NCBI GenBank assembly: GCA_016906335.1 | Contig: JADEYG010000002.1 | Coordinates: 62,001 to 126,000 of the forward strand | Length of the DNA stretch: 64,000 bases | Origin: Novakomyces olei | Taxonomy: Eukaryota | Direction of reading: 5' to 3' | In this document: positions 1 through 53,398 of the stretch, piece by piece | Layout: each line of letters starts with the position of its first letter | Position numbering within the stretch: the stretch's first letter is position 1 | Position numbers and translations under genes: made by a program | Notes under the pieces: generated by a model | What the model was told of the DNA's origin: nothing | The model's input: only the letters and a program-made list of their open reading frames with translations | The model's database searches: none

Positions 1-1659
1 CGCGTCAGTCTCAACTACTGACAGTCGGTCCGGATCGAAGTATCGTAATATCGGCGCTTGCAGGAATGTCGACTTTAGTTCCTGAAACGCTGATTCGGTG
101 GCTTCGGTCCATTTGAAATCCCGATCTTTCTTCAATAACGCGGTCAGAGGCTGACAGATTTTGCTGTAGTTTTGTATAAACCGCCGATAGAAGTTTGCAA
201 AACCTAGGAATGCTAACAAGTCTCGCTGAGTCTTCGGGGTCGGCCAGCTCCGTACTGCCTCCACCTTCCCGGGGTCCATTTTAACGCCCTCAGTGCTTAT
301 TACGAAACCCAGGAACTGCGTCTGAGTAACATTAAACTCGCACTTTTCCAATTTCACATATAGGCTTGCTTCTCTGAGCCTCTCCAACACGTCTCGTACG
401 TGCTTCACATGATCTTCCTCGTTCTCTGAGTATATCAAAATGTCATCCAAGTATACCACTGCATACTGGTCTAGGCATGGCCTTAAAACGTCATTCACCA
501 GCGCTTGAAACGACGCCGGAGCGTTCGTTAAGCCAAACGGCATCACTTGATACTCAAAGTGACCGTATCTTGTGCGGAAGGCCGTCTTCCATTCGTCACC
601 CCTTTTAATACGCACTAGATTATAAGCTCCTCTCAAGTCTAGTTTCGTAAAAACGCGCGAAGTACGAACTCGGTCCAACAACTCCGAGATTAGCGGAAGA
701 GCGTACCGATTCTTTATTGTAACCGCATTGAGTCCTCGGTAGTCTACGCATAATCGTAACGATCCGTCCTTTTTCTTTACGAATAATATCGGCGCTCCAG
801 CCGGACTAGACGAATGCCGAATAAAACCTTTCTCCAGGCTTTCTGCCAAATACTCGCGTAGTGCCTTAAGTTCCGGTTCCGACAACGCATATATTGGCCC
901 GTGGGGAGGATGTGCTCCGTCACTTAGGGGTATAGCGTGGTCCCACGCCTTGTGGTCCGGGAGGCGACTCGCACTCTTCTTATCAAATAACTCTCGGAAG
1001 TCCTCATAACTTTCCGGTACTTTCTGTAATTCTTCGGCAACCGGCGCCTCTTGCTGCTCGGTTCCATACACACAAAGAGACCCACTCTGGCCATCTTTGA
1101 ACAATCTCTTAAACACTGCCGCTGACACCAATCCTACCTCTGGCATTGGGCCGCTCAAACATAGTCTTCTGCAGAACTTCGACGTAAACTCAATCCGTGA
1201 GCTCGTCCAATCAATATCCGGGTTGTGTAGATCTAGCCACGGCCGGCCTAGAACTATCGGATAATTTCCAATCTTCATCAAGTTAAACTGTATCTCTTCG
1301 CTATGGCCTGGAACTTCGGTGGTGTGCATCCGAATTGGTTCCGTGTGTCTCACAATAGCTCCGGAAGACGCTTCGCTTCCATCAAATACAGTAACAGTTT
1401 CCGGTGTATCCTTACGAGTGGTAGGGATATGTAATTTCCGGATAAAATCCAAATCAGCAAAATTTGAAGTCGCGCCGGAGTCAATCATTGCAGTAACTTT
1501 GCGCTGACCTCCGGGTGCTTCAATCAATACGGGAATAGTCAAGTGAGGAGAATATAACGGTGACGGTGACAAGTAAAACGATAATCTATGGTGTACGATA
1601 CTACGCCCTTCTGGCAGACTCAGGCAGGGCTTCAGTATTTTTCCTGAGCCTCGTCGTTT
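1..1659 (-). CDS. pol: Pol of element D (protease and RT, partial), -1 frame relative to gag
   Basis: Manual translation gives protease VTAMIDSGATSNF (~1460-1497) and RT AVVYLDDILIYS (~430-460) in the same frame. The ORF runs off the window, so it is absent from the ORF track. Confidence 0.9.
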
Positions 1660-2588
1660 TCCTCGTAATACTCTTCCGTCTCCGCAATTGCGGCATGCTG
1701 TCCCAAGGCGCGGTTTGATGTTGGGCATTCCGCGGCTCGGTGACCCGGCTTGTCGCATCGGAAACAGCGGAAAGTGCGGCGAATATCATTTGGCTTGGAC
1801 TTTCCGGGGCCTTTAACTCTGGCATTTCGTCGGACTTCAGACTGTGCACTGACTGAGTCGACTTCCATAGGCATTGTTTCCGGTACAATTCTTCCCTGTC
1901 GATTTGTCTCGTGTGCTTCGTATCGCCGGACTGTTCTCGGCAGCACAACATCTAATCGACGATCATACAGTCGGTTGTCGATCGTAACCGCTGCTTTCAT
2001 AAACTCCGTAAGTGATTTCGGTTTCGGTACTTTCGCTAGTTCGTCCAAAATCTGCGGCTTCAGTCCCGCTTCGAACAAAAACATAAGCGCCGCATCGTTA
2101 AAATCCAGGAACGACGCGAGCTGTTGGAACCTCGCTACGTAACTAGATACCGAACCAATTTGCTTTAGCTTCTTTAACTCTCTCTTTGAGTTCTCATATG
2201 TATCGAAATCCCCAAACGTACGCGAGATCTCTGTCACGAATCCTTCGTAATCACTCAACATCTCCGGTTCCGGAGTCACCCTCATCTGTGACTCGAACCA
2301 ACTAAAAGCCGGACCGCGTAGCAGGGATGCTGCAAATCGTACACGGTCTCGGTCTGTTCCGAAGTCCCTACTGTTGGCTTCCAAGTACATTTTCACATGG
2401 GCTAGGAACTGCCGAAGTTCCGGTCGGGCTCCATGGAATTTGTCCGGTTTCTCAATCGGCGAAGGTCTTGCCTTCCCGGCACTAAACTGCATAGCTCGCA
2501 GCTCTTCGTTCTGACGACGTATTGTCTCAATCTCACCTTGCAGTTGCACCAAGGCATCAAAGTAATTAATGTCTTGTCCAGACTCCAT
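1632..2588 (-). CDS. gag: Gag of element D (capsid plus CCHC zinc knuckle)
   Basis: 318-aa ORF with PDKFHG, FAASLLRGPAFSWF, LKQIGSVSSYVARF and the knuckle CFRCDKPGHRAAEC. Confidence 0.93.
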   Translation of the reverse strand: MESGQDINYFDALVQLQGEIETIRRQNEELRAMQFSAGKARPSPIEKPDKFHGARPELRQFLAHVKMYLEANSRDFGTDRDRVRFAASLLRGPAFSWFESQMRVTPEPEMLSDYEGFVTEISRTFGDFDTYENSKRELKKLKQIGSVSSYVARFQQLASFLDFNDAALMFLFEAGLKPQILDELAKVPKPKSLTEFMKAAVTIDNRLYDRRLDVVLPRTVRRYEAHETNRQGRIVPETMPMEVDSVSAQSEVRRNARVKGPGKSKPNDIRRTFRCFRCDKPGHRAAECPTSNRALGQHAAIAETEEYYEENDEAQEKY

Positions 2589-2831
2589 CTTCCTTCACTG
2601 AAGTCTTCCTTCACAAAATTGAATAAAATTAAATTAAATCTCACACAAAATCTCAACTAAAATCAGTAAAATTATTCAACTCGCAACTGCTAAAATAAAC
2701 TTCAAACAACTTCAGATCAAAATTTTCAACACAAAACACATTTTTTTTTTTTTTTTTTTTTTTTTAATAAAACTTTTCTTCCTCTTCTCCCACCTAAAGC
2801 AGGTACAGGCAAGTTCGCCGACGGGTTAAAG

Positions 2832-3211
2832 TGTAAAGAACGCCCAGGACACTGTAGGCACTCTAGGCCGAAGAGGGATTACAAGTAACACAAACACAAA
2901 TATGAAGGAAGAAAATATATTAAGTTAACCCGTGAAGAGCGGAAGCTCTTCACGCTAGCCTATATACTTTGTTTACTTCGCAGTCACTACTGCTAAGTAA
3001 ACGTTCTACCCTAATTGCGTGTAACCCCGAACCCTACCGGACTACCGGAGTTACCGCTTACGCCGAAGTTCCGATACGGAACTTCGTAACTAAAACTAAT
3101 CTAAACAACTATAAACTACCGAAGTCCGTAATCGGGACTTCGGTCCGAACAAACTACGAACCATCTATAAGAAAGCCGGAGGCCCGAGCCTCCGAACAGC
3201 CGATCATCACA
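2832..3211 (-). repeat. 5' LTR of element D (~380 bp)
   Basis: Bounded by TGTAAAG and CATCACA, TATA-like at 2961-2966. The right end abuts B-family pol sequence. The partner LTR is outside the window. Confidence 0.8.
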
Positions 3212-3327
3212 CAATACCAGAAAGAGACAAATACAATGGGAAAAGCAAGATAAACCATACAACTCAATATCACAAAAGGGTGCATCCGTTGTAAGTTCAA
3301 TCACAATTGATCCAAAGAAAAGGATTG
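3212..3327 (+). pseudogene. 116-bp pol fragment of element B between the D and A insertions
   Basis: Near-identical to A 5502-5617 and continues at 8955 after the GATTG duplication. Confidence 0.9.
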
Positions 3328-3621
3328 TGTTAGGAGTGTAGATAATAAATAATTAAACATTGAATTACTTAAAGGGTCCTAAACGTGTACGGATTAAATC
3401 TGGAACCTCGGCATTTGATTAATAATTAATCACGCCATAGCGGAAGCTGACTCATGATTAGTCAAGGCTGACTCATAATTAATCACGCCATTTCGGGCTT
3501 TCGGACAATGGATTATTAATCCATTACAGGAGTCTATAATAAGGACACGGTTTCCCATAGTTTAGAACATAGTTTTTTCTATCTTTTAATTTATTTGTTA
3601 CAACAGTGAGTTACCCTCACA
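3328..3621 (+). repeat. 5' LTR of element A
   Basis: TGTTAGG...CCTCACA, direct repeat of 8661-8954. Confidence 0.97.
3448..3475 (+). promoter_or_regulatory. Cluster of AP-1/YAP-type bZIP sites in LTR A
   Basis: TGACTCA 3448-3454, TTAGTCA 3458-3464 and TGACTCA 3469-3475, upstream of the TATA-like motif at 3535. Confidence 0.55.
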
Positions 3622-4318
3622 CATTTTTTCACTGCTAACTAGGACAGTGACTCCCCCGTCTGGACAACGCCGACGGATTTACCCTCACGTTTTCTCTGAG
3701 CCTTTTGCAAATCTTTTGCGTCAGGCGAAAACTGATCCTCCTAAGGATAAGGTGTTGACTGGATATTGCCGTCAATACCCGGAGTCCAAGGAGCGAAAAC
3801 AAAACTCTGAGTCTGGACCTGCCGACCAGAGTGTTCGACCCTCTTCCAGCTTGACTCTTCAGCTGTCGAAGAGAAGAGAAAGAAACGCTCGCCGTTCAGA
3901 GGCCTTCAAGGAGCGTAAGAGAATTGAAACGGTTTCTAAACCATTTGCAACACCTCGTCCGAAACCACTTCCAACCCCGATTCCGGCCCCGCTTCCGAAA
4001 CCAGTTCCAGCACCAGTTCCAGCACCAGTTCCAAGATTACCGCTTACGGAGGAAGAAATATTTCGAAAAGAAGCTCATTGGACAAGCAAGGTTGCGGCTC
4101 AAATCAAATACGAGGACACCTACAATAATCTTGTGGCCAAAAGAATACAGGAACTGAGCAGGAAAAAAAAAACTAAGTATTTGCTTGACAACATCGTTGA
4201 GGACGAATACAGAATCCGTCTTTTTAAAGGAGAGGATCCAGACAAAGTTGAAAAGGACTACTACGAACATTTGGAACAAGGACGACAAAAGCCATCCTAT
4301 CTTAATACGCTTTTTTAA
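3605..4318 (+). CDS. Accessory ORF0 of element A, 223 aa, unknown function; join(3605,3648..4318)
   Basis: Open frame with no internal Met, homologous to 15319..16029 in C. Basic motif KRRERNARRSEAFKERKR, Pro-rich linker, conserved C-terminal domain. Confidence 0.85.
   Translation, partial: SELPSHIFSLLTRTVTPPSGQRRRIYPHVFSEPFANLLRQAKTDPPKDKVLTGYCRQYPESKERKQNSESGPADQSVRPSSSLTLQLSKRRERNARRSEAFKERKRIETVSKPFATPRPKPLPTPIPAPLPKPVPAPVPAPVPRLPLTEEEIFRKEAHWTSKVAAQIKYEDTYNNLVAKRIQELSRKKKTKYLLDNIVEDEYRIRLFKGEDPDKVEKDYYEHLEQGRQKPSYLNTLF
3606..3647 (+). other. Predicted 42-nt spliceosomal intron spanning the LTR end and PBS region of A
   Basis: Donor GTGAGT 3606-3611, branch GCTAAC 3634-3639, acceptor CAG 3645-3647. 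Removal gives CAAC-A|TG-ACT-CCC, in frame with ORF0. Confidence 0.8.
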
Positions 4319-4389
4319 ACTAGCTCATTAATTTAACTCAAATTTATTAATCTACTTTATTCATAAAATTAATTTAATTTTAATTAATT

Positions 4390-7300
4390 ATGGATTTTAA
4401 GATTAAATTACCTGAGCCTACGAAATTGAATGGTCGCCCAATGACCCATAGAGAGTTCCAGTCATGGAGACACTCTATGGTAAAATGGCTCGCCTATGTC
4501 AAGACAGGCGAACATCCTATTGCTATTTCAGATGTCGACTTGATTAGCATGTTTCTCGAATCAAATGCTTCGATCTATGCTGAGGAGCTCCGTGACAATA
4601 CTTCTCTCACAGCAAATCAAATGCTTGATCACCTTGAGAGAAGCATTGTTCCGAACGATTATCTACCTCGTGCATACAGCAAGTTTGTCACCTTCACTCA
4701 GGGCACAAGAAGCATTAGCCAATATGCAACGCAGCTTAAGCTCAAATCAATGGAACTTGAGATAGTCAACGAGGCAATCTTGATTCAACAATTCATACAT
4801 GGATTAAATGAAAGAACCAAACCTCAAATAATGGGATCATTGAGAAGTGCATTTGGAACTCAATCCGGTGATAGTTCGAACATGGTCAAATGGAATTGGC
4901 AAAACGTTGTTGATGTGGCTACAGGTTATGACTTTGCGACAGCAAGACCCTTTGTTGGAAATATGAGTACGAAAGCAGCCAGTCAGAGAACAGAGGCACG
5001 AGCTGATGTTCCTGAAAAGAGTGAACCAGAGAAACCTATTCTCCGAACAAGATGTACTTTTTGTCGCAGAACTGGGCACACCTACGAGCAATGTTTCAAA
5101 AGAAAGAATCAGTCAAGTGTGAGTGCTCTTCAAACAAGCACAGAAATAGATAGCGAAGAAATAAAACTTGAGTATCACTGTTCCGCTGTCCAAAATACCG
5201 GTCAACAATTTCTTGTAGTCCTACCAATTGATATAAACGGTAAAGAAATAAAATGTCAAATACTTATTGACACCGGGAGTGACCTTGACGTTATTGATTC
5301 GAACTTCTGCAATGTTCACCGACCAAAATACTATGAAAGTGACCATAAAATTGAAATGGCATTTCAAGGATCAAGAACTATTAGCCGACACATGGCAAGA
5401 ATACGATTTAAGGGATATGAGTTGAATTGCGCAGTGGCAAGACTGAGAACCTCTGACCTTCTCATCGGAATGGGAACACTAAGCAAACTTGGAGCAATTG
5501 TCAATACCAGAAAGAGACAAATACAATGGAAAAAACAAGATAAACCATACGATTCAATATCACAAAAGGGGGCAGCCGTTGTAAGTTCAATCACAATTGA
5601 TCCAAAGAAAAGGATTGATGTTCAGTCAGTTCGAGAACAAGACACAATTGACTCAAATAAGGTACTGGAAGTGCTACAAGACAAGTTCAAGCAAACTTTG
5701 GTAGCAAGTCCACCAAGCAAATTGCCTATAATGAGACCAGTGGTTGCAACATACGAGCCGATCGACCCACACAAGAAGTACAATATCAAAAAGTGGTATC
5801 CAAGCAAGAAGCTAATGATGCCCTTAAAACTGAAAATTGATGAACTTCTACACGCCAAAATGATATCAATTTCTACAGAAGAGCCAAGTGCCATATTATT
5901 TCCTATTCCTAAAGACAAGGACATGGTCAACAAGCTCACAGATCCAAAAGAAATCAAGAATTATCTGCGATTTGTCAATGACGCTAGACCTCGGAATGCG
6001 AACATGAAACGCTTTTACATTCAGGTTCCTCGCATTGACATTGTAGTTCAAGATATTGCCAGAGCAAAATACAGAACTAAGATTGACTTGAAGGACGCTT
6101 TCTTTCAATCTAGAATACAGCCTGGGCAAGAACATTATACGGCATTTTGGACGCCATTTGGAATATACCAATGGAATGTGATGCCACAAGGAGATCGAAA
6201 CTCTACTGCTATACAACAGCAGCTTATGGAGGAATTATTCAGACCCTACATTGGCATTTGGATGACAGTATATGTTGACGACATCATCATATACGATGAC
6301 GATGTCCAGGAACACTTGGATCACCTAGTGATTGTCTTTGGAATAATGTCTAAATGGGAACTATACGCTAGTCCAGCCAAGACCTTTCCATTCTGCAAAA
6401 GCTTTGTGGTACTAGGCAGACAGATCAGTGATGAAGGAATCAAAATGACTGAAAAATCAAGAAACTCCATACTACGACTAGAAACTCCAAAGAACATGAA
6501 ACAAATACAGAGACTGGTGGGCATGCTAAACTGGATTTCAACGTTCATACCCAATTTATCGTCACACATCTCAACATTCACTGAAATGAAGGAGTTTTCC
6601 TGGGATGAAACTAAGCAGAAAGGATTTGACAAAATAAAGTCTGCAGTTCAGCAAGACATAATACTCAAGCCATTTAACCCAGAGCCTCTGAACAATGGAA
6701 CAGAGAAATTATTCATGGGAATAGATGCCTCTCTGGTGGGCACTGGAGGTTGGCTAGGTCAAGGAAAAGAATGGCAAACATGCAGAATAATTGGGTTTAC
6801 CTCTAAGAAACTTGGAATAGCAGAATCCCACTATCCAGTTCACGAACTTGAATATCTAGCATGCATCAGAGCATTGGAGCATTTCGAAATATATGCTAGA
6901 GGATATCAGGTAAATTGTTTGACAGACAATAAAGCATTAAGTCGTCTTTTTTACTCGAAGAACGTTATGCTGTCGCGACGTCATCTACGATGGATGGATT
7001 TTTTGAATGAATTTGACATCAATATTATACACGTGCCAGGAACACTTAACGTCTTAGCAGACTTATTGTCACGCTCTCATTCACACTCAAAGGTCGCTGG
7101 AATCTCTATTGAACAAACCCCAAATACAGATATAGATGTAGAGATACACAATCTCTATCTAAAGGATACATATTGGGCAGAAATACTTGCAATATTGAAA
7201 AGCAACGAAGAAAATCCAGATACCGAAAAACTTAAATCAAGATATTGTCTCAAAGATAATCTCATTCACCTCAAATTTGATGACCGAATCTGTATTCCTT

Positions 7301-8685
7301 CAGGCTTCACAAACAAGATAATACAAGAACTTCACGACACATATCAAGGTGGACATGGAGGCATAAATAAGACAATAGCCGGTGTTGCGCGGACTTATTA
7401 TTGGCCAGCAATGGCAAAAGAAATTAAGGACTATGTGAAGTCGTGCGAGACGTGTGCTAAGAGCAAAATTACACCTCACAAGCCCATTGGTTTACTATTA
7501 GAGCTGAACATACCAAAGGCTCGATGGGAAACCATTGGAATGGATTTCATTACTGGGCTTCCTTTATCTGGAAAGGAAAAATACGATGCAATAATTTGTA
7601 TTGTTGACCGACTCACCAAACGCGCGCATTTTTGGCCAACACACACAACTATAACCGCTGAAGGCACAGCAGCTCTATTCTTGGATCGATATTTCTGCTT
7701 ACATGGTCTACCAAAAATAATTATTAGTGACCGAGATGTCAGGTTTATGTCAGAGTTTTGGACACAACTCACAAAGGTTCTTGAAGTCAAACTCAAACCA
7801 TCATCAAGCTATCACCCACAAACAAATGGGCAAACGGAAAGAACAAACAGGGTTCTCGAAGATTACCTACGCCTATTTACATATGCCAATCGTAACAACT
7901 TCACATGGCACAAATTGCTTTCGTTTGCAGAATTCTTTTATTCCTCAAGCAAACACTCTGCTATCACGATGACTCCATTTGAAGCTGACCTAGGATACAA
8001 TCCAAGAAGCTTAAGTGATCTTGCAATGTCTATTCCACAAAGTCAAGACAATTCATCATTCCTTGAAACTCTAGCAGCCAATCAAATACTCTGTCAAGAT
8101 GCCATAAGAGCCGCACATGACTTATCAAAGATTTATGCAGACAAAAACAGACTCAACATTGAATATGAAGTCAACGACTATGTATACCTGAGTACTGCAA
8201 ACATTCGAGAAATACCTGAACTATTTCAACATGACTTGACCAGAAAACTTCAATCCAAATACATTGGACCATACAAAATTGTTAAAAAGGTCAGTCCAGT
8301 GGCATATGAACTGGAACTACCCACAAATCTAAAATATCATTCAGTTGTTCATATCTCACAACTCAAAAAGCACAATGCAATGACTGAACAGAACGAACGT
8401 GAACAACCAAAACCAAAAGCTTTGCGACGCTATAAAGATAATACAGAACTTTATGCTATACAAAGCATAGTTGACCACGCTTGGTTCAGAGCTGACAAAA
8501 AGTCTACAACACCTAAAAAAGGCTACACCTTACTTTATCGAATTCGCTGGGAAGGATACAATCCTGACGAAGACACATGGGAGCCAAAACAACACCTACT
8601 ACATTCCAGACAACTCCTTGACAACTACAATTCGACACATCTCGAATTAGTGGGGGAGGATGTTAGGAGTGTAGATAATAAATAA
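4390..8685 (+). CDS. gag-pol: Single-ORF Gag-Pol of element A (Gag-CCHC-PR-RT-RNase H-IN-chromodomain)
   Basis: 1431 aa: CTFCRRTGHTYEQC, LIDTGS, YVDD, IDAS/ELE/TDN RNase H, HHCC plus GMDF/ISDRD/QTER integrase, YIGPY, chromodomain YRIRWEGYNPDEDTWEP. The stop lies inside the 3' LTR. Confidence 0.97.
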   Translation: MDFKIKLPEPTKLNGRPMTHREFQSWRHSMVKWLAYVKTGEHPIAISDVDLISMFLESNASIYAEELRDNTSLTANQMLDHLERSIVPNDYLPRAYSKFVTFTQGTRSISQYATQLKLKSMELEIVNEAILIQQFIHGLNERTKPQIMGSLRSAFGTQSGDSSNMVKWNWQNVVDVATGYDFATARPFVGNMSTKAASQRTEARADVPEKSEPEKPILRTRCTFCRRTGHTYEQCFKRKNQSSVSALQTSTEIDSEEIKLEYHCSAVQNTGQQFLVVLPIDINGKEIKCQILIDTGSDLDVIDSNFCNVHRPKYYESDHKIEMAFQGSRTISRHMARIRFKGYELNCAVARLRTSDLLIGMGTLSKLGAIVNTRKRQIQWKKQDKPYDSISQKGAAVVSSITIDPKKRIDVQSVREQDTIDSNKVLEVLQDKFKQTLVASPPSKLPIMRPVVATYEPIDPHKKYNIKKWYPSKKLMMPLKLKIDELLHAKMISISTEEPSAILFPIPKDKDMVNKLTDPKEIKNYLRFVNDARPRNANMKRFYIQVPRIDIVVQDIARAKYRTKIDLKDAFFQSRIQPGQEHYTAFWTPFGIYQWNVMPQGDRNSTAIQQQLMEELFRPYIGIWMTVYVDDIIIYDDDVQEHLDHLVIVFGIMSKWELYASPAKTFPFCKSFVVLGRQISDEGIKMTEKSRNSILRLETPKNMKQIQRLVGMLNWISTFIPNLSSHISTFTEMKEFSWDETKQKGFDKIKSAVQQDIILKPFNPEPLNNGTEKLFMGIDASLVGTGGWLGQGKEWQTCRIIGFTSKKLGIAESHYPVHELEYLACIRALEHFEIYARGYQVNCLTDNKALSRLFYSKNVMLSRRHLRWMDFLNEFDINIIHVPGTLNVLADLLSRSHSHSKVAGISIEQTPNTDIDVEIHNLYLKDTYWAEILAILKSNEENPDTEKLKSRYCLKDNLIHLKFDDRICIPSGFTNKIIQELHDTYQGGHGGINKTIAGVARTYYWPAMAKEIKDYVKSCETCAKSKITPHKPIGLLLELNIPKARWETIGMDFITGLPLSGKEKYDAIICIVDRLTKRAHFWPTHTTITAEGTAALFLDRYFCLHGLPKIIISDRDVRFMSEFWTQLTKVLEVKLKPSSSYHPQTNGQTERTNRVLEDYLRLFTYANRNNFTWHKLLSFAEFFYSSSKHSAITMTPFEADLGYNPRSLSDLAMSIPQSQDNSSFLETLAANQILCQDAIRAAHDLSKIYADKNRLNIEYEVNDYVYLSTANIREIPELFQHDLTRKLQSKYIGPYKIVKKVSPVAYELELPTNLKYHSVVHISQLKKHNAMTEQNEREQPKPKALRRYKDNTELYAIQSIVDHAWFRADKKSTTPKKGYTLLYRIRWEGYNPDEDTWEPKQHLLHSRQLLDNYNSTHLELVGEDVRSVDNK

Positions 8686-8954
8686 TTAAACATTGAATTA
8701 CTTAAAGGGTCCTAAACGTGTACGGATTAAATCTGGAACCTCGGCATTTGATTAATAATTAATCACGCCATAGCGGAAGCTGACTCATGATTAGTCAAGG
8801 CTGACTCATAATTAATCACGCCATTTCGGGCTTTCGGACAATGGATTATTAATCCATTACAGGAGTCTATAAAAAGGACACGGTTTCCCATAGTTTAGAA
8901 CATAGTTTTTTCTATCTTTTAATTTATTTGTTACAACAGTGAGTTACCCTCACA
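8661..8954 (+). repeat. 3' LTR of element A
   Basis: Direct repeat of 3328-3621, preceded by the PPT and followed by TSD GATTG. Confidence 0.97.
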
Positions 8955-8980
8955 GATTGATGTTCAGTCAGTAGCAAACT

Positions 8981-11815
8981 TTGGTTACAAATCCACCAAG
9001 CAAATCGCCTATAATGAGACCAGTGATTGCAACATACGAGCCAATCGACCCACACAAGAAGTACAATATCAAAAAGTGGTATCCAAGCAAGAAGCTAATG
9101 ATGCCCTTAAAGCTGAAAATTGATGGACTTCTACACGCCAAAATGATATCAATTTCTACAGAAGAGCCAAGTGCCATATTATTTCCTATTCCTAAAGATA
9201 AGGACATGGTCAACAAGCTCACAGATCCAAAAGAGATCAAGAATTACCTGCGATTTGTCAATGACGCTAGACCTCGGAATGCGAACATGAAACGCTTTTA
9301 CATTCAGGTTCCTCGCATTGACGTTGTAGTTCAAGATATTGCCAGGGCAAAATACAGAACTAAGATTGACTTGAAGGAAGCTTTCTTCCAATCTAGAATA
9401 CAGCCTGGGCAAGAACATTATACGGCATTTTGGACGCCATTTGAAATATACCAATGGAATGTGATGCCACAAGGAGATCGAAACTCTACTGCTATACAAC
9501 AGCAGCTGATGGAGGAACTATTCAGACCTTACATTGGCATTTGGATGACAGTATATGTTGACGACATCATCATATACGATGACGATGTCCAAGAAAACTT
9601 GGATCACCTAGTGATTGTCTTTGGAATAATGTCTAAATGGGAACTATACGCTAGGCCAGCCAAAACCTTTCCATTCTGCAAAAGCTTTGTGGTACTAGGC
9701 AGACAGATCAGTGATGAAGGAATCAAAATGACTGAAAAATCAAGAAACTCCATACTACGACTAGAAACTCCAAAGAACATGAAACAAATACAGAGACTGG
9801 TGGGCATGCTAAACTGGATTTCAACGTTCATACCCAATTTATCGTCACACATCTCAACATTCACTGAAATGAAGGAGTTTTCCTGGGATGAAACTAAGCA
9901 GAAAGGATTTGACAAAATAAAGTCTGCAGTTCAGCAAGACATAATACTCAAGCCATTTAACCCAGAGCCTCTGAACAATGGAACAGAGAAATTATTCATG
10001 GGAATAGATGCCTCTCTGGTGGGCACTGGAGGTTGGCTAGGTCAAGGAAAAGAATGGCAAACATGCAGAATAATTGGGTTTACCTCTAAGAAACTTGGAA
10101 TAGCAGAATCCCACTATCCAGTTCACGAACTTGAATATCTAGCATGCATCAGAGCATTGGAGCATTTCGAAATATATGCTAGAGGATATCAGGTAAATTG
10201 TTTGACAGACAATAAAGCATTAAGTCGTCTTTTTTACTCGAAGAACGTTATGCTGTCGCGACGTCATCTACGATGGATGGATTTTTTGAATGAATTTGAC
10301 ATCAATATTATACACGTGCCAGGAACACTTAACGTCTTAGCAGACTTATTGTCACGCTCTCATTCACACTCAAAGGTCGCTGGAATCTCTATTGAACAAA
10401 CCCCAAATACAGATATAGATGTAGAGATACACAATCTCTATCTAAAGGATACATATTGGGCAGAAATACTTGCAATATTGAAAAGCAACGAAGAAAATCC
10501 AGATACCGAAAAACTTAAATCAAGATATTGTCTCAAAGATAATCTCATTCACCTCAAATTTGATGACCGAATCTGTATTCCTTCAGGCTTCACAAACAAG
10601 ATAATACAAGAACTTCACGACACATATCAAGGTGGACATGGAGGCATAAATAAGACAATAGCCGGTGTTGCGCGGACTTATTATTGGCCAGCAATGGCAA
10701 AAGAAATTAAGGACTATGTAAAGTCGTGCGAGACGTGCGCTAAGAGCAAAATTACACCTCACAAGCCCATTGGTTTACTATTAGAGCTGAACATACCAAA
10801 GGCTCGATGGGAAACCATTGGAATGGATTTTATTACGGGGCTTCCGTTATCTGGAAAGGAAAAATACGATGCAATAATTTGTATTGTTGACCGACTCACT
10901 AAACGCGCGCATTTTTGGCCAACACACACAACTATAACCGCTGAAGGCACAGCAGCTCTATTCTTGGATCGATATTTCTGCTTACATGGCCTACCAAAAA
11001 TAATTATTAGTGACCGAGATGTCAGGTTTATGTCAGAATTTTGGACACACCTCACAAAGGTTCTTGAAGTCAAACTTAAACCATCATCAAGCTATCACCC
11101 ACAAACAAATGGGCAAACGGAAAGAACAAACAGGGTTCTCGAAGATTACCTACGCCTATTTACATATGCCAATCGTAACAACTTCACATGGCACAAACTG
11201 CTTTCATTTGCAGAATTCTTTTATTCCTCAAGCAAACACTCTGCTATCACGATGACTCCATTTGAAGCTGACCTAGGATACAATCCAAGAAGCTTAAGTG
11301 ATCTTGCAATGTCTATTCCACAAAGTCAAGACAATTCATCATTCCTTGAAACTCTAGCAGCCAATCAAATACTCTGTCAAGATGCCATTCGAGCTGCACA
11401 TGACTTATCAAAAATTTATGCAGACAAAAACCGACTCAACATTGAATATGAAGTCAACGACTATGTATACCTGAGTACTGCAAACATTCGAGAAATACCT
11501 GAACTATTTCAACATAACTTGACAAGAAAACTTCAATCTAAATACATTGGACCATACAAAATTGTTAAAAAGGTCAGTCCAGTGGCATATGAACTGGAAC
11601 TACCCACAAATTTAAAATATCATTCAGTTGTTCATATCTCACAACTTAAAAAGCACAGTGCAATGACTGAACAGAACGAACGTGAACAACCAAAACCAAA
11701 AGCTTTGCGACGCTATAAAGATAATACAGAACTTTATGCTATACAAAGCATAGTTGATCACGCTTGGTTCAGAGCTGACGAAAAGTCTACAACACCTAAA
11801 AAAGGCTACGCCTAA
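8981..11815 (+). pseudogene. Disrupted pol of element B (RT-RNase H-IN)
   Basis: 944-codon frame homologous to A, with a ~60-bp deletion near 8972, a TTA>TAA stop within the chromodomain, and the 5' part cut off by insertions. Confidence 0.9.
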
Positions 11816-11943
11816 CTTTACTGAGTTCGCTGGGGAGGATACACTCCTGAAGAAGACACATGGGAGCCAAAACAACACCTACTACATTCCAGACAACTCC
11901 TCGACAACTACAATTCGACACATCTCGAATTAGTGGGGGAGGA

Positions 11944-12226
11944 TGTTAGGAGTGTAGATAATAAAAATAATTAAACATTACTTAAAGGGTCCTAAAACAA
12001 TCTAAAAACCTCGGCATTTGATTAATAATTAAGTACGCCATAGCGGAAGCTGACTCATGATTAGTCATGGCTGACTCATAATCAATCATGCCATTTCGGG
12101 CCTTCGGACAATGGATTATTAATCCGTTACAGGAGTCTATAAAAGGACACAGTTTCCCATAGTTTAGATACATACTTTTTCTATCTTTTTTTTATTTATT
12201 GGTTACAACAGTGAGTTATCCTCACA
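11944..12226 (+). repeat. 3' LTR of element B
   Basis: Diverged copy of LTR A with indels. Retains both TGACTCA sites, TATAAAAG and AACAGTGAGT. Confidence 0.92.
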
Positions 12227-12378: not shown

Positions 12379-14200
12379 ATGAAAAGCATGGACGCAAAGA
12401 GCAATTTAAACTCAGTAGATGTGACCGAGCTTTACGACCCAATGGAGGTCGGAGACGAGTCACTGAAAAGAAAAAGAGTGGGAGCCGAAGAATATATAGA
12501 CCCAGAGACGATTGTACTAAATGAGCTACCTCTAATTCGCCGGTCTGACAGACTTAAAGAGAAGGATCTAAAGAGGACACGTATACAACAACATAACATC
12601 TCTGGCCCATATCTGGCAAAAGACGTAATAATACCTGTAAGTGTAAAGCAGGCAATACATTCAAGACATGGCCAGGAATACAAAAGGGCTATGGAAGCGG
12701 AACTAGAGTCATTATTCGAAAAAAATGTAATTAAATCTCTAGATACAAATGAAGTTCCTAATAAAGTTGTGTCTACGAAATGGGTGTTCGCCGTGAATTC
12801 AAATCACTTAGGTGAAGTTACGAGGTTTAAAGCCCGGCTCGTTGCTCGTGGGAATGAGCAGACACAGATGATCTGGATACTTACGCTTCTACGCTTGGAT
12901 TTAAAGAGCTGCGCATGCTGTATGCACATGCTGCCATAAGAAAGGCTAAAATCCTAACACTCGACATTAAAACAGCATTTTTAAATGCGCCGATTGATGA
13001 GGAGCTATATATCAAAATAGCTCACGAAGGGGGTAATCCAGAGATATACAAAGTGCAAAAAGCACTCTACGGTTTTCGACAATCGCCACGACTCTGGTAC
13101 AACATGTACAAAGATTTTTTGGAGGACGAACTTGGCTTTTCCCGTACAGGCAAGGAGAAAATATCTTTATCAGATCTACGGGGATGTTTCTATGTGTCGT
13201 CGCTATTTATGTAGATGACACAATGGTCATCTGTGAAAATGAGAGCATGAGCCTAGCTGTGATTGAAAAAACCCAGCTCAAATTTGAGACTGATGAGGCC
13301 GAACCTATTACTAAATTCCTGGTGATTGAGACTACACAGTCGCCCACGCTGGACACTGTTTCAGTGTGCGCAAAGGAATATATTCGAAAACTATTGGTTA
13401 GATTCGAAACCGGAGAATACTATTCACAGAAGAGACCATCCAGTAAAGTGCCTTTGCTAGCAGAAGAAGGTAGCCCTGGTGCACGTTTACTAGAAGGTCA
13501 AGAAGTAAAAAGATATCAAAGCCTAGTAGGATCCTTGAGATACGTCACCACTGTTGCAAGACCCGACATTGCAAATGCAGTAAGGCGAGTATCATATGGA
13601 TTGCAAGGACCTACAGTTCACAACATGAGAATGGCAGAAAAAATATTAGGATATCTAAAGTCTACTATGAGTTTTTGTCTAACCTATCATCCTAGAAAGG
13701 ATATAGACAAACAGCTTTCGGTCTACACTGATGCAAGCTTTGCTAGCTCAGAAGACAATGGAAAGTCTTGCATGGGAATTGCTATTCTCATGGCTGAAGC
13801 TCCAGTGTATTGGGAAAGCAAGACAATCAGGGATTACAAAGGTAGGTCAATGGATACAGAGCTAGTGGCGCTATACGAGGGTCTAAATCAGGCCAGGCAC
13901 CTACACTTTATACTCCATCAATTGGAGCATAATCAACTCCAAGAAATACAAGTATTTGAAGATAACACAGGTGTTATTGAAACCCTACGACGAAACAAGC
14001 CATACGGAGGCCACCCTGCTCTCCAAAATAAGGCAGAGGCATTAAAGGCATGTGTGCAAAACCGTGAAGCAAATATATGCTATATTTGCACGGACGAACA
14101 GTTGGCAGATGGATTTACAAAGGTACTTTCAGTTAATAAAATGCAGGAATTTGTGTCACGACTAGGGATGAATTCAAATACAGGGACAGCGAACGCATGA
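12379..14200 (+). pseudogene. Frameshifted Copia RT-RNase H
   Basis: Motifs split over three frames: KWVF..RFKARLVARG; DIKTAFLNA and KALYGFRQSPRLWY; YVDD, YTDAS, FEDN, QLADGFTK. Confidence 0.92.
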
Positions 14201-14690: not shown

Positions 14691-14939
14691 ATAGATATGT
14701 CAGATAGTTCTAGTCAATGTGTTCTTGCAGTAACTAGAAGATTAAGATTAATTCTACCACACATCCGCTGTAAAAGTTTTATTTGTATTTATTATATTCT
14801 TAAGCCAGTCATATTTATTTGTAATGTGGACTCCGGCTCCGGAGTCCAGTATAAATGTAGAGTTATTCGAGGCTTTATCCTTTATTTTTCTCGTGTTCAT
14901 TGCCATAAATGCAATCTTTGGTTTATTCTTATTGCCTGG

Positions 14940-15299
14940 TGTTAGGCCATAGTGTAGATAGTAAAAATAAAATTAAAAATGACATAATTAAATTAAATTA
15001 ATTCACTCCAAATAGGGAATTTAACCGATTTGGAGGAATATTTAATTACTAATCATTAAATCAAGCCACTGATCGGGTATCTGTATCTTATCAATGATAA
15101 GGTGATTACTAATTGATCGGTTACTTCTGATCCTATCTGATTACTAATTGATAGGAAAGTCTTGATCCTATCTCTTGGCAAATTACGAAGATAAGAGCTG
15201 AGCCTTGAAGTCTATAAAAGGACAAGGTTTTCCATAGTTTAAGGGTAGATTTAATTAATCTAAAAGTTATAACAGTGAGTAATTTCCACAGTTATAACA
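14940..15299 (+). repeat. 5' LTR of element C
   Basis: TGTTAGG...GTTATAACA, TATAAAAG at 15213, direct repeat of 20370-20729. Confidence 0.97.
15046..15147 (+). promoter_or_regulatory. Three YAP/Pap1-type response elements in LTR C
   Basis: TTACTAA at 15046-15052, 15106-15112 and 15141-15147, upstream of the TATA box. Confidence 0.5.
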
Positions 15300-16029
15300 A
15301 CTTTTTTCACTGCTAACATTGTCAGTGAATCCGTCAGGAGACAGCCGACGGCCTCGCATTGTCTACTCTGAGACATTTGCAAATCTCTTGAAGCAGGCAA
15401 AAACCGATCCAAAGGTTGTTGTCTCGGCTGGCTCTATCCGCCGAAGCAATACACCTAAGGATAAGGATAAAACCTCTGTGTCTGGACTTACCGACCAGAG
15501 TGCCCACTCAGAGAAAAATACCTCGATTCATCAATTGAATAAGAGGAAAGAAAGAAACGCTCGCCGATCGCAGGCATTCAAAGAGCGTAAACTCAACGAT
15601 CGAATTTCCAAGGGGCCTGAATCAATTGCTGCTATTGCGGCAAAGGTGCTCAGAAAACCTCCTCCACCAGCGCCGAGACTTGGTCCTTACCCAGCTCTTA
15701 CAGCTCCTTCAGTTTCGCCGGCCACTATTTCTACTACAACTCCTCGTTTACCTCTATCAGCGGAAGAAGTTTTTCGAAAACAAGCGCACTGGACAAGCAA
15801 AGCGGCGGCCAATCTACGTTACGAGGAAACATACAACAAATTGGTGGCCAATCGCATTCAAGAGCTACACAATAGGAAGAAAACAAAATATCTTCTGGAC
15901 AACATCGTTGAGGACAGATTCAAAATTCGTCTCTACAGAGGAGAAGATCCAAACAAAGTTGAGAAGGATTATTACGATCACTTGAAAAGTGGACAGCAAT
16001 CACCAGCGTTTTTTAATACTTTGTATTAG
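15274..16029 (+). CDS. Accessory ORF0 of element C, 234 aa; join(15274,15326..16029)
   Basis: No internal Met. Homologous to ORF0 of A (FANLL.QAKTDP, RNARRS.AFKERK, AHWTSK, KKTKYLLDNIVED, GEDP.KVEKDYY). Confidence 0.85.
15275..15325 (+). other. Predicted 51-nt spliceosomal intron spanning the LTR end and PBS region of C
   Basis: Donor GTGAGT 15275-15280, branch GCTAAC 15312-15317, acceptor CAG 15323-15325. Removal gives TAAC-A|TG-AAT-CCG, in frame with ORF0. Confidence 0.8.
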
Positions 16030-16095: not shown

Positions 16096-19000
16096 ATGGA
16101 CTTCAAAATCAAGCTGCCTGAACCAGCAAAGCTGAATGGTCATTCAATGACCCATAGGGAGTTCCAATCATGGAGAGGCTCTATGGTTAAATGGCTGACA
16201 TATGCCAAAGCAGGAGGCAGTGTCACCGGGATTTCAGATATAGACTTAATTAGCATGTTCCTCGAATCGAACGCTACAATCTATGCTGAAGAACTCAGGG
16301 ACAATGCTAGTGTAACGACAGATCAGATGCTTGATCATCTGGAGCGAAGCATTGTACCCAACGACTATTTACCACGCGCTTACAGCAAGTTTGTTACCTT
16401 CGCTCAAGGAACAAAAAGCATTAGCCAATATGCCACGCAACTTAAATTGAAATCAATGGAACTAGAAATAGTTAACGAAGCCATCTTGATTCAACAATTC
16501 ATCCATGGGCTAAATGAGAGAACAAAGCCTCAAATAATGGGATCTTTGAGAAGTGCATTTGGAAACCAGTCGGGAAACAACACAGGAATGACGAAATGGA
16601 AATGGCAAAGTGTGGTTGATGTGGCAACAGGCTACGATTTTACTGCAACAAGACCATACGTAGGAAACATGAATCCTAAACAAGGCAACCAACAAACTGA
16701 AACAAAGGCAACTACTTCTGAGAAGAAAGAACCAGAGAAGCCAGCCCTCAGAACAAGATGTACCTTTTGTCGCCGCACTGGGCACACGTACGAGCAATGC
16801 TTTAAACGAAAGAATCAATCAACCATCAGTGCTCTTAAAGAAGATTCTGGAATAGTTAGCGAAGAAATCAAACTTGATTACAATTGTTCTGCTGTCCAAA
16901 ACACAAACCAACAATTTCTAGTTAATTTACCTGTGGAAATAAATGATAAAAAAATCAAATGTCAGGTCCTGATTGATACTGGAAGTGATATTGACGTTAT
17001 TGACTCAAACTTTTGCAATGTTCACCGACCAACATACAAAGAAAGTGACCACAAAATTCAAATGGCCTTTCAAGGATCGAAAACTGTGAGCAGATATATG
17101 GCCAAAGTCATGTTCAAGGGGAGCGAGTTAAATTGCGCCGTTGCAAGACTTAGAACTTCTGATCTATTGATTGGCATGGGAACACTAAGTAAGCTTGGGG
17201 CAATTGTGAACACTCGCAAACGACATATACAATGGCAGGACGATGCAAATGAAAGAAGGTTTGTCAAGCCAGAAGTACTTCCTGTAGTCAGCTCAATAAC
17301 AATTGATTACAACAAGAGAATTGAAGTCCAACAAGTTACAAATGAGGACTTGGTTGACCCAGAAAAAGTACTGCAGATACTTCAAGACAAGTTTGATCAA
17401 ACTTTGATCAAGGATCCTCCAAGCAAGTTGCCTATAATGAGACCTGTGGTTGCTACATATGAGCCAATTGATCCAGAAAAAAGGTATAACATAAAAAAGT
17501 GGTACCCAAGCAAAAAGCTTATGTTGCCTCTGAAAGTAAAGATTGATGAGCTTTTAGAGGCAAAGATGATCTCAATCTCTAGCGAAGAACCTAGTGCAAT
17601 ATTGTTTCCAATTCCCAAAGACAAAGAAATGGTTAACAAGCTAACAGATCCTAAAGAAATAATTAAATATTTGAGATTTGTTAATGATGCTCGACCTCGC
17701 AATGCAAACATGAAGCGTTTCTACATTCAAGTACCACGTATTGACATAGTTGTACAAGACATTGCCCGAGCAAAATACAGAACTAAGATTGATTTGAAGG
17801 ACGCTTTCTTTCAATCAAGAATACAACCCGGACAGGAACACTACACGGCATTCTGGACACCATTTGGGATATATCAGTGGAACGTCATGCCTCAAGGAGA
17901 TCGTAATTCCACTGCTATACAGCAACAACTTATGGAGGAGCTCTTCAGACCTTACATTGGAATATGGATGACAGTCTATGTCGATGACATAATAATATAT
18001 GACGATGATGTCCAAGCACATCTGGACTATCTGGTGCTAGTTTTTTGTATTATGTCAAAGTGGGAACTATACGCGAGTCCAACCAAAACATTTCCGTTTT
18101 GCAAGAACTTTGTTGTGCTGGGGAGACAAATTAGTGATGAAGGAATCAAAATGACTGATAAATCAAAAAACTCCATACTGCGACTGGAACCACCAAAGAA
18201 TATTAAGCAAGTACAAAGATTGGTTGGAATGCTGAATTGGGTTTCAACGTTCATACCAAACTTATCCTCACACATTTCAACATTCACTGAGATGAAGGAG
18301 TTTTCTTGGGACGAAACAAAACAAAAAGGCTTTGATAAAATCAAGAAAGCAGTTCAGCACGACATAGTACTTTCACCATTTGACCCTGAGCCCCTGAATA
18401 ATGGTACAGAAAAACTATTCATGGGAATAGATGCTTCACTAGTTGGTACAGGTGGATGGCTAGGACAAGGACAAGACTGGAGAAAATGCAGAGTAATAGG
18501 CTTCACGTCGAAAAAATTAGGGATAGCTGAATCACACTATCCTGTACATGAACTTGAATATCTTGCATGCATACGAGCTCTTGATCATTTTGAAATATAT
18601 GCTCGAGGTTACCAAGTCAATTGTTTAACAGACAACAAAGCTCTGAGTCGCCTCCTTTACTCCAAAAATGTTATGCTTTCACGAAGACACCTTAGATGGA
18701 TGGATTTTTTGAATGAGTTCGATATTAATATTATTCATGTTCCTGGAACTGAAAATATCTTGGCTGATCTACTTTCAAGAACACACGGAAAAACAGCTGA
18801 TGTAGGTGCAATTTCCGTACAAATCTCGCCCCAGAATAATTTAAAATTTGAGCTGGCCTACGAAAAGGACAAACATTGGTCCAAAATACTCACTATTTTG
18901 AAAAATCCAAACAATTTTGCAGACAACGAAAGCGTAAAAATCAAATCGCGCTACTACATCCAAGACGGTATAATACATCTCAAATACGATGATAGAATCT

Positions 19001-20382
19001 GCCTACCAACAGATTTCACAAACATCATAATAAGAGAATCACATGACACCTACCAAGGAGGGCATGGAGGCATAAAGAAAACAATAGCAGGCGTAGGCCG
19101 CAAATACTACTGGCCAGGTATGGCAAAAGAAATAAATGAATATGTCAGATCATGTGAAACGTGTGCTAAAAGCAAAATTATACCTCAAAAGCCAATTGGA
19201 CTATTGCAAGAACTCGATATACCGAGTAATCGTTGGCAAACAATAGGCATGGACTTCATCACTGGACTACCAGCTTCGGGGACTCAAAAGTTTGATGCTA
19301 TAATTTGCATAGTTGATCGTCTAACCAAAAGAGCTCATTTCTGGCCCACGCACACAACTGTAACAGCACAAGGAACTGCACAGCTATTTTTGGAAAGATA
19401 CTTCTGTCTACACGGCTTACCAACTGCAATAATAAGTGACAGAGATGTAAGATTTATGTCTGAATTTTGGCAGACACTTACAAAAATTCTTCAAATCAAA
19501 CTGAAGCCATCATCAAGCTATCACCCACAGTCCAACGGTCAAACCGAACGTACAAATCGTGTATTGGAAGACTATCTTCGTCTTTTCATTTATGCCAATA
19601 AAAACAACTTCAGCTGGCACACATTATTATCGTTTGCCGAATTCTTTTACTCTTCAAGCCAACACTCCGCCATATCAATGACACCCTTTGAGGCGGATCT
19701 TGGCTACATCCCACGCAGTCTTACTGACTTATCAATGCCCGAAACACCGAACAAAGATACTTCCTCTTTTATAAACACTCTGGAGGCCAACAAAATTCTT
19801 TGTCAAGATGCTATCAGAACAGCACATGATTTATCAAAAATCTATGCGGATGAAAAGCGACTAAATGTTGAATATAATGTTAATGACCTGGCTTATTTAA
19901 GCACAGCCAACATACGAGAAATACCGGAGCTATTCCACGATGTTCTCACACGAAAATTACAATCAAAATACATTGGTCCATTCAAAATTATTCAAAAAAT
20001 CAGTCCTGTTTCATATGAATTGGAACTACCAACATCCATAAAATATCATCCCGTTGTTCACATTTCTCAATTAAAGAAACATCATCCAATGAACAGTCAC
20101 AACACCAGAGAACAACCTAAGCCTAAAGCTCTGCGACGCTACAAAGACAACACAGAATTATATGTAATTAAACAAATCGTTGATCATGGATGGTTCAAAG
20201 GATCTAAAAAATCCAATACACCGAAACAGGGGTATAAGCTTTTATACCGAATCCGCTGGGAAGGCTATGGACCTGAAGACGATACATGGGAACCTAAATC
20301 TCACTTGGCTAACTCAACCAACCTGCTGAACAACTACAATTCGACACATCTCGAATCAGTGGGGGAGGATGTTAGGCCATAG
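16096..20382 (+). CDS. gag-pol: Single-ORF Gag-Pol of element C with chromodomain
   Basis: First ATG at 16096 (MDFKIKLPEP, as in A). CCHC, LIDTGS, YVDD, RNase H, integrase, YIGPF and YRIRWEGYGPEDDTWEP. Confidence 0.97.
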   Translation: MDFKIKLPEPAKLNGHSMTHREFQSWRGSMVKWLTYAKAGGSVTGISDIDLISMFLESNATIYAEELRDNASVTTDQMLDHLERSIVPNDYLPRAYSKFVTFAQGTKSISQYATQLKLKSMELEIVNEAILIQQFIHGLNERTKPQIMGSLRSAFGNQSGNNTGMTKWKWQSVVDVATGYDFTATRPYVGNMNPKQGNQQTETKATTSEKKEPEKPALRTRCTFCRRTGHTYEQCFKRKNQSTISALKEDSGIVSEEIKLDYNCSAVQNTNQQFLVNLPVEINDKKIKCQVLIDTGSDIDVIDSNFCNVHRPTYKESDHKIQMAFQGSKTVSRYMAKVMFKGSELNCAVARLRTSDLLIGMGTLSKLGAIVNTRKRHIQWQDDANERRFVKPEVLPVVSSITIDYNKRIEVQQVTNEDLVDPEKVLQILQDKFDQTLIKDPPSKLPIMRPVVATYEPIDPEKRYNIKKWYPSKKLMLPLKVKIDELLEAKMISISSEEPSAILFPIPKDKEMVNKLTDPKEIIKYLRFVNDARPRNANMKRFYIQVPRIDIVVQDIARAKYRTKIDLKDAFFQSRIQPGQEHYTAFWTPFGIYQWNVMPQGDRNSTAIQQQLMEELFRPYIGIWMTVYVDDIIIYDDDVQAHLDYLVLVFCIMSKWELYASPTKTFPFCKNFVVLGRQISDEGIKMTDKSKNSILRLEPPKNIKQVQRLVGMLNWVSTFIPNLSSHISTFTEMKEFSWDETKQKGFDKIKKAVQHDIVLSPFDPEPLNNGTEKLFMGIDASLVGTGGWLGQGQDWRKCRVIGFTSKKLGIAESHYPVHELEYLACIRALDHFEIYARGYQVNCLTDNKALSRLLYSKNVMLSRRHLRWMDFLNEFDINIIHVPGTENILADLLSRTHGKTADVGAISVQISPQNNLKFELAYEKDKHWSKILTILKNPNNFADNESVKIKSRYYIQDGIIHLKYDDRICLPTDFTNIIIRESHDTYQGGHGGIKKTIAGVGRKYYWPGMAKEINEYVRSCETCAKSKIIPQKPIGLLQELDIPSNRWQTIGMDFITGLPASGTQKFDAIICIVDRLTKRAHFWPTHTTVTAQGTAQLFLERYFCLHGLPTAIISDRDVRFMSEFWQTLTKILQIKLKPSSSYHPQSNGQTERTNRVLEDYLRLFIYANKNNFSWHTLLSFAEFFYSSSQHSAISMTPFEADLGYIPRSLTDLSMPETPNKDTSSFINTLEANKILCQDAIRTAHDLSKIYADEKRLNVEYNVNDLAYLSTANIREIPELFHDVLTRKLQSKYIGPFKIIQKISPVSYELELPTSIKYHPVVHISQLKKHHPMNSHNTREQPKPKALRRYKDNTELYVIKQIVDHGWFKGSKKSNTPKQGYKLLYRIRWEGYGPEDDTWEPKSHLANSTNLLNNYNSTHLESVGEDVRP

Positions 20383-20729
20383 TGTAGATAGTAAAAATAA
20401 AATTAAAAATGACATAATTAAATTAAATTAATTCACTCCAAATAGGGAATTTAACCGATTTGGAGGAATATTTAATTACTAATCATTAAATCAAGCCACT
20501 GATCGGGTATCTGTATCTTATCAATGATAAGGTGATTACTAATTGATCGGTTACTTCTGATCCTATCTGATTACTAATTGATAGGAAAGTCTTGATCCTA
20601 TCTCTTGGCAAATTACGAAGATAAGAGCTGAGCCTTGAAGTCTATAAAAGGACAAGGTTTTCCATAGTTTAAGGGTAGATTTAATTAATCTAAAAGTTAT
20701 AACAGTGAGTAATTTCCACAGTTATAACA
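20370..20729 (+). repeat. 3' LTR of element C
   Basis: Direct repeat of 14940-15299, followed by TSD CCTGG. Confidence 0.97.
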
Positions 20730-20789
20730 CCTGGCTTTCCATTCAGGAACCAGCAGTTTCTTTTGATATGCCCGACTTTGTTACAATGG

Positions 20790-52972: not shown

Positions 52973-53129
52973 TGTCGGCAGGTGTTTAGTACGGATGGAG
53001 TACGTGATTATTATAAATTTATATTGTGGAGCAGGCAATCTCTGTGGGATAATGGATAATAGGGTGCGAGTAAATTCAAAGTAAATTTGAGTAAAAATAG
53101 AAATTAAAAAACGCACGTAAAATCTCGAG

Positions 53130-53398
<269 letters not shown>

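Follow-up and report, generated by a model that had tools for sequence, protein, structure and literature searches.

Two chromoviruses with an ORF upstream of gag

The window analysed here is a stretch of 64,000 nucleotides (nt) from Novakomyces olei (GenBank assembly GCA_016906335.1, contig JADEYG010000002.1, positions 62,001 to 126,000 of the forward strand), numbered below from its first letter, and the system in question is a pair of retrotransposons with long terminal repeats (LTRs) within it, elements A and B, each of which carries ahead of gag an open reading frame (ORF), termed ORF0, that lacks an ATG of its own and may receive a start codon by splicing. Element A, on the plus strand, opens with a 5' LTR of 294 bp bounded by TG...CA (3328-3621), which is identical at 293 of 294 positions to the 3' LTR (8661-8954). 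A polypurine tract (8650-8660) lies directly before the 3' LTR, and the element is flanked by copies of the target site duplication (TSD) GATTG at 3323-3327 and 8955-8959. Within the 5' LTR, a TATA box and the block downstream of it (3530-3564) presumably represent the promoter and start region. ORF0 (3648-4318, stop codon 4316-4318) comprises 223 codons, counting either the splice-made AUG or the GUG at 3647, and is separated by an AT-rich, ATG-free spacer of 71 nt (4319-4389) from a single ORF of 1431 amino acids (4390-8685) encoding Gag, protease (PR), reverse transcriptase (RT), RNase H, integrase (IN) and a chromodomain. Gag has a CCHC knuckle and Gag-Pol also a Tf2-type SH3 domain, the Pfam matches being Retrotrans_gag (residues 51-141), gag-asp_proteas (280-365, weak), RVT_1 (553-677), RT_RNaseH (772-875), Integrase_H2C2 (969-1027), rve (1051-1143, under the Pfam cut-off), SH3_Tf2-1 (1263-1328) and Chromo (1355-1414). 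With its TG...CA LTR pair and short TSD, and with the order Gag-PR-RT-RNase H-IN followed by a C-terminal chromodomain, element A is a complete Ty3/Gypsy (Metaviridae) chromovirus. It is inserted in an older copy that belongs to its own family and is truncated at the 5' end (3212-3327 and 8955-12226), in which 3212-3327 matches 5502-5617 of element A and 8975-11965 matches Gag-Pol residues 435-1431; the LTR of this older copy (11944-12226) is 87% identical to that of A and keeps AACAGTGAGT together with the CUCAC partner.

Element B, also on the plus strand, has a 5' LTR of 360 bp (14940-15299) identical at 360 of 360 positions to 20370-20729, TSDs of CCTGG at 14935-14939 and 20730-20734, an ORF0 of about 234 codons without a Met codon (15326-16029; 57% amino acid identity to ORF0 of A) and a Gag-Pol ORF (16096-20382; 80% amino acid identity). 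Judged by their LTR identities and TSDs, both elements are young and intact, and presumably recently active. Their synonymous divergence from each other is nevertheless near saturation, with a proportion of synonymous differences (pS) of 0.63-0.73 and a synonymous substitution rate (dS) of 1.4-2.8, so that unconstrained sequence is expected to be scrambled between them. This is what is observed outside a few motifs, identity being 97/286 in U3, 10/32 in R/U5, 4/19 at the LTR end and 1/5 in the spacer between branch point and 3' splice site.

A candidate mini-intron across the LTR end

The preliminary description of this DNA had proposed that an intron across the LTR end and the site at which the primer binds (PBS) may switch element A between ORF0 and Gag-Pol, and the positions on which that proposal was built prove accurate. 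GTGAGT (3606-3611) lies 16 nt inside the LTR, whose end can be placed at 3621 by comparison with the 3' LTR (8661-8954) and from the GATTG duplication; the motif is followed by a T6 run (3624-3629), by GCTAAC (3634-3639), whose CTAAC (3635-3639) would provide the branch A at 3638, and by CAG (3645-3647). Excision of this 42-nt candidate intron (3606-3647) would join A3605 to T3648-G3649 and create an AUG in the frame of the 223-codon ORF0, the putative 5' exon end (3597-3605) supplying the first letter of this AUG as well as the A at -3.

The motif islands are kept between the two elements, and B therefore carries the same candidate intron, here of 51 nt (15275-15325), with GTGAGT at 15275, T6 at 15302-15307, CTAAC at 15313-15317 and CAG at 15323-15325. 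Its excision would join A15274 to T15326-G15327, again producing an in-frame AUG with A at -3. Despite the difference in length, the A/TG junction, the A at -3 and the distance of 9 nt from branch A to 3' splice site are kept in both, and the candidate intron covers the PBS position together with the final 16 nt of U5 in A and the final 25 nt of a longer U5 in B. Four islands are conserved between A and B, namely the TATA block (31/35), the donor block (GTTAYAACAGTGAGT, 15/17), T6-CACTG-CTAAC (16/16) and CAG/TGA at the acceptor (6/6), and the splice-like motifs thus stand out of sequence that is otherwise about 20-35% identical, the identity between the motifs being 20-31%. The pattern GTGAGT-N15-45-CTAAC-N3-12-YAG has two matches in the 64 kb with both strands counted, where 0.15 are expected, and both are the retrotransposon sites; the GTAAGT version of this strict pattern has no match in the window.

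Comparison with introns of host genes was made by a motif-filtered screen, which biases the candidates towards consensus signals, followed by a check for continuity of Pfam profiles across the intron. The alpha-adaptin gene contains introns of 147 nt (53971-54117; Adaptin_N profile positions 30-123, then 127-372) and 54 nt (54949-55002; 127-372, then 376-523), and a LYR/SDH6-like gene on the minus strand contains one of 37 nt (31062-31098; Complex1_LYR profile positions 1-29, then 33-58). Another, of 41 nt (53640-53680), was recognised from frame continuity alone, and a further candidate, with GTGAGT, lies at 26370-26415. The earlier statement that the candidate intron has the size of host introns (35-55 nt) is accordingly borne out in part by the 37- and 54-nt introns, with the qualifications that a 147-nt intron is equally well supported and that the 41-nt example lacks a profile. 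Host donors read GTATGC, GTAAAA, GTAAGC and GTAGCC, and host branch points are CTAAC, TTAAC or CTGAC, placed 7-10 nt before the acceptor. The candidate introns of A and B match this pattern, combining a consensus donor, a CTRAY branch point, a YAG acceptor and host-like spacing and length, and their donor is stronger than those of the host examples. The LYR/SDH6-like intron also shows the succession CTAAC-TAG-CAG seen in element A, TAG and CAG both being in frame, so that a skipped TAG, as put forward for this intron in the preliminary description, is one of two possible readings.

ORF0 as a coding region

It had further been claimed that the junction AUG is the only one available to ORF0, and this holds in a stronger form than was stated: in element A, all frames lack an ATG between 3509 and 4389 and ORF0 contains no Met codon, and in element B no ATG occurs between 15095 and 16095. 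In leaders of about 830 nt, 12.9 +/- 3.4 ATGs would be expected in A (3560-4389) and 13.8 in B, and none of 2000 shuffles of either leader reached zero, while the antisense triplet CAT occurs at a normal frequency (9 in A, 8 in B).

The ORF0 frame is free of stops over 222 codons in A and 233 in B, as against 3-15 stops in the other frames, and indels between the two elements preserve the frame. When A and B are compared, the ratio of non-synonymous to synonymous substitution rates (dN/dS) of ORF0 is 0.24, and 0.14 across its last 100 codons; Gag has a value of 0.08 and Gag-Pol one of 0.05. By these sequence measures, ORF0 is a real coding region under purifying selection. The predicted protein combines a basic stretch rich in Arg and Lys with a Pro-rich linker and a C-terminal part that is helical and conserved, and its AlphaFold2 (AF2) model is of low confidence, with a mean predicted local distance difference test (pLDDT) score of 55.4 and a predicted template modelling (pTM) score of 0.23. 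ORF0 belongs to no Pfam family and has no homologue in a protein homologue search, viral contigs, metagenome contigs or a protein atlas; a profile built from A and B found 0 matches among 1.84 billion representatives, and a search of PDB sequences returned a single match at E 0.47, which is not meaningful. Genes of this kind, without an ATG and absent from the searched protein collections, are consequently invisible to standard annotation.

RNA structure and the position of the PBS

The leaders of both elements fold better than their shuffled counterparts (z of -3.3 and -3.9 for the two elements) into three hairpins: a U5 hairpin that contains the donor, a UCACUG...CAGUGA hairpin whose loop contains CUAAC and whose stem holds the acceptor together with GUG, and a conserved CCGUC...GACGG hairpin (3657-3675 in A) that follows the ORF0 start site after 7-10 nt. 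An alternative fold obtained with RNAalifold pairs the donor block with UUCACUG.UAAC. Comparison of A with B yielded no covarying pair among the leader pairings. The partners of the donor differ, being GUGAG/CUCAC in A and GUUAUAAC arms plus GUG/CAC in B, with GUGAGU invariant in both, and U6 and CUAAC are invariant yet unpaired. The changed partners and the unpaired invariant motifs favour splice signals over structure alone, GUGAGU, CUAAC and U6 being what the spliceosome recognises.

The site presumed to be the PBS (3622-3639) is placed by its position and consists of a 2-nt spacer followed by the invariant 16-mer T6-CACTG-CTAAC, which starts 2 nt past the LTR end in both elements. Since this is the position required of a PBS, part of the conservation of the 16-mer must serve reverse transcription, and if the intron is real, its splice signals overlap the PBS. 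The TGG with which a tRNA-type PBS would begin does not occur within 38 nt after the LTR of A, nor in B, and no tRNA genes lie in the 64-kb window. A self-primer of the Tf1 type, of 11 nt, was considered and rejected, the longest exact complement between the LTR and the sequence that follows it (39 nt examined in A, 41 nt in B) being 6 nt in A and 7 nt in B; the sole self-complement common to both elements is the 6-nt TCACTG/CAGTGA, and an imperfect self-pairing of 4+7 bp is present. Within the presumed PBS, the T6 run and CACTG (3624-3634 and 15302-15312) would be complementary to an RNA whose end reads ...CAGUGA with an A-run added. CAGUGA is also the sequence at the donor in R/U5, and the presumed PBS matches no known primer type. 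The juxtaposition of T6 and CACTG may be a pointer to an unconventional primer; a poly(A) tail and the D-arm of the initiator tRNA were considered for this site, and neither is put forward here.

Genomic surroundings

Positions 1-3211 are occupied on the minus strand by a different Ty3/Gypsy element without an ORF0-like layout, its Gag (Ty3_capsid, CCHC; 1635-2588) and PR-RT (4-1758) lying in overlapping frames. Its leader contains an A-run of about 25 nt, read as a T-run on the plus strand, near 2740-2765. Fragments of Ty1/copia elements (RVT_2 and copia-type Gag) at 12379-14200 (plus strand) and 21416-22138 (minus strand) flank element B, and the first approximately 23 kb of the window can on this account be described as a transposon nest resembling a centromeric or subtelomeric cluster.

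Further along, (AAT)n repeats form a perfect microsatellite, about 270 nt long (53128-53398), directly upstream of the alpha-adaptin gene. The best matches of MDM31 (34399-36228, minus strand) are approximately 52% identical and spread over Pezizomycotina, Lipomycetaceae and Saitoella, and the host seems to be an early-diverging ascomycete lineage without a close sequenced relative. A fission-yeast host was considered and set aside in view of these matches and of the differences from the Tj1 element given below. Relatives of Gag were found neither in metagenome contigs nor in viral contigs, Gag-PR residues 1-480 gave no match at E <= 1e-5, and an exact look-up of two host proteins and both Gag-Pol proteins in a collection of 15 billion proteins found 0 of the 4. 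Elements A and B most likely represent a lineage of chromodomain Ty3/Gypsy elements not known from elsewhere, with an early-diverging ascomycete as host.

Proposed mechanism and alternative explanations

In the mechanism that we favour, transcription would start shortly past the conserved TATA block, and the unspliced RNA would serve both as genome and as Gag-Pol message, the latter because ribosomes can scan through some 830 nt of leader that contain no AUG until they reach the AUG of gag. From a fraction of this RNA, the host spliceosome would remove the mini-intron of 42 nt (A) or 51 nt (B), using a donor in U5 and an acceptor just past the PBS position, and the AUG assembled at the junction, with A at -3, would open ORF0. 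The spliced RNA would lack the U5 end and the PBS region and would thus be a dead-end mRNA for ORF0 only, and the small conserved hairpins around donor and acceptor would probably hold splicing partial. Judged from the motifs, their conservation and their host-like architecture, we lean modestly towards the splice-made AUG being real, and the mechanism as a whole, in which partial splicing yields the ORF0 mRNA and unspliced RNA the genome and Gag-Pol message, earns slightly better than even credence. The fuller proposition, that a fungal chromovirus runs a retrovirus-like, miniature two-RNA programme in which a regulated intron of 42-51 nt doubles as a replication signal, so that splicing disables the template and at the same time builds the start codon of an orphan Arg-rich protein, which might target RNA of the element itself by analogy with Rev or CERV, is put forward tentatively and is rather doubtful.

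The switch between ORF0 and Gag-Pol, as it was set out in the preliminary description, therefore stands in part. What supports it is the preservation of the layout in B, the selection on ORF0, the AUG-free leaders and the host-like intron architecture; what does not follow so readily is the involvement of the PBS, which is located by position alone, and the assignment of motifs that also sit in conserved hairpins to splicing. Several observations weigh against splicing as the source of the start codon. Conserved pairings involve GTGAG, TCACTG, TAAC and CAGTGA alike, and these pairings, together with the PBS position, mean that replication constraints could explain much of the conservation. The comparison is one between two lineages of shared ancestry, and no compensatory change touches the splice signals. 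In element A, a TAG (3640-3642) precedes the CAG, 4 nt past branch A, and use of this proximal TAG would form no AUG. The GUG at the start of ORF0 and an in-frame CUG upstream of it are conserved in both elements, and the conserved CCGUC...GACGG hairpin lies at a distance past the GUG, 7-10 nt, from which it can favour weak start codons.

The alternative that draws most on these observations dispenses with splicing altogether. ORF0 would be translated as a minor event from unspliced RNA, starting at the near-cognate GUG (3647 in A, 15325 in B) or at the CUG (3632 and 15310), and the motifs would serve reverse transcription as a hairpin in U5, as the PBS and as a further hairpin close to it, any resemblance to splice signals being coincidental. 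Conservation of both codons, the hairpin downstream of the GUG, the paired state of the motifs and the start of the invariant 16-mer 2 nt past the LTR end in both elements all agree with such an arrangement, for which the upstream CUG start of glyco-Gag in murine leukaemia virus (MLV) provides a precedent, and the AUG-free leader fits it as well as it fits splicing. The codon contexts are poor, however, with U at -3 of the GUG in B and, in both elements, U at -3 and C at +4 of the CUG. Moreover, pairing fails to account for the invariant but unpaired U6, the CUAAC in the loop or the persistence of GUGAGU with changed partners, and a full consensus with host spacing and an in-frame A/TG, of which 0.15 would be expected per 64 kb, is seen solely at these sites. 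Initiation at a non-AUG codon is on balance unlikely, though it is to be taken seriously.

Splicing might also be real and serve to limit or regulate transposition, as self-restraint or under host control, through destruction of the U5 end and the PBS in part of the transcripts, with the AUG and ORF0 secondary or with the proximal TAG used in A. The removal of the last 16 or 25 nt of U5 and of the PBS position fits this explanation, as does the TAG at 3640-3642 ahead of the CAG. In element B, however, no AG occurs between the branch point and the CAG, A and B alike preserve the A/TG junction and the A at -3, and ORF0 is under purifying selection without any other AUG, which together make a purely regulatory intron improbable. 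That ORF0 is untranslated, the region being a structured, AUG-free leader for packaging or dimerisation and the open frame a by-product, would agree with the lack of a homologue or Pfam family in the searched collections and with the low-confidence AF2 model, but is highly improbable given a dN/dS of 0.24 at near-saturated dS, a frame open over 222 and 233 codons where others hold 3-15 stops, and frame-preserving indels.

Comparison with known systems

Deltaretroviruses such as human T-cell leukaemia virus type 1 (HTLV-1) and bovine leukaemia virus (BLV), as well as foamy viruses, have their major splice donor in R, upstream of the PBS. The arrangement proposed for A and B would resemble theirs in relying on one LTR promoter, in using unspliced RNA as genome and Gag-Pol message, and in producing accessory proteins from spliced RNA that lacks U5 and PBS. 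It would differ in an intron of only 42-51 nt, in an accessory gene located upstream of gag and in a start codon assembled at the junction, as well as in the host, a fungus, and in the element, an env-less Ty3/Gypsy chromovirus. In MLV, glyco-Gag arises from upstream CUG initiation on unspliced RNA and has in common with ORF0 that an extra protein is begun ahead of the gag AUG, within a leader free of AUG. Glyco-Gag, in contrast, is an in-frame N-terminal extension of Gag, whereas ORF0 is separate and ends 71 nt before gag.

Among retrotransposons, Cer1 of Caenorhabditis elegans encodes a protein, CERV, which is made from a spliced mRNA and is needed to export the unspliced genomic RNA (PMC10309623). 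The likeness to elements A and B lies in conventional host splice signals within the genomic RNA, splicing being predicted in the present case, and in a lineage-specific orphan accessory protein; CERV, however, is encoded by five exons, among them exons of gag, and has a 3' ORF in common with Cer1, whose PBS is of the tRNA-Pro type, while ORF0 is a single 5' ORF. Plant LTR retrotransposons carry additional ORFs (aORFs), some of them upstream of gag, and the sections consulted of a review on them urge a search for spliced transcripts (PMC7264820). These aORFs resemble ORF0 in being conserved ORFs beside gag-pol to which no function is assigned; among the cases described in those sections, there is no AUG-less 5' aORF opened by an intron that runs from U5 into the leader (PMC7264820).

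The Tf1/sushi elements Tf1, Tj1 and Tosmo resemble A and B in being Ty3/Gypsy elements of fungi that have a chromodomain, a TSD of 5 bp, a structured leader across U5 and PBS and no TGG PBS (10.1101/2022.12.06.519325, PMC4600332). As described there, they have no ORF0, and element A is set apart by a CCHC Gag and the lack of an 11-nt self-primer. Tj1 further differs from A and B in its 244-bp LTR, a gag stop codon and the absence of CCHC (10.1101/2022.12.06.519325, PMC4600332). Membership of A and B in the self-priming Tf1/sushi group was rejected on its defining PBS feature, the complement measuring 6-7 nt and not about 11.

Precedents thus exist for splice donors that precede the PBS, for accessory proteins made from spliced RNA and for ORFs ahead of gag. 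A literature search limited to one collection, in listings and selected passages, turned up no fungal LTR retrotransposon in which an intron that begins in U5 and ends in the leader opens a 5' ORF lacking an AUG. If the proposed mechanism is true, elements A and B would be the first case found of a fungal LTR retrotransposon that chooses between genome and Gag-Pol RNA on the one hand and an accessory mRNA on the other by means of host splicing, with a start codon put together where the exons meet and an intron that overlies the end of U5 as well as the PBS. The two natural variants would then offer a compact system for the way in which local RNA structure sets partial splicing, and the logic of the 'complex retrovirus' would reach a simple, env-less element.

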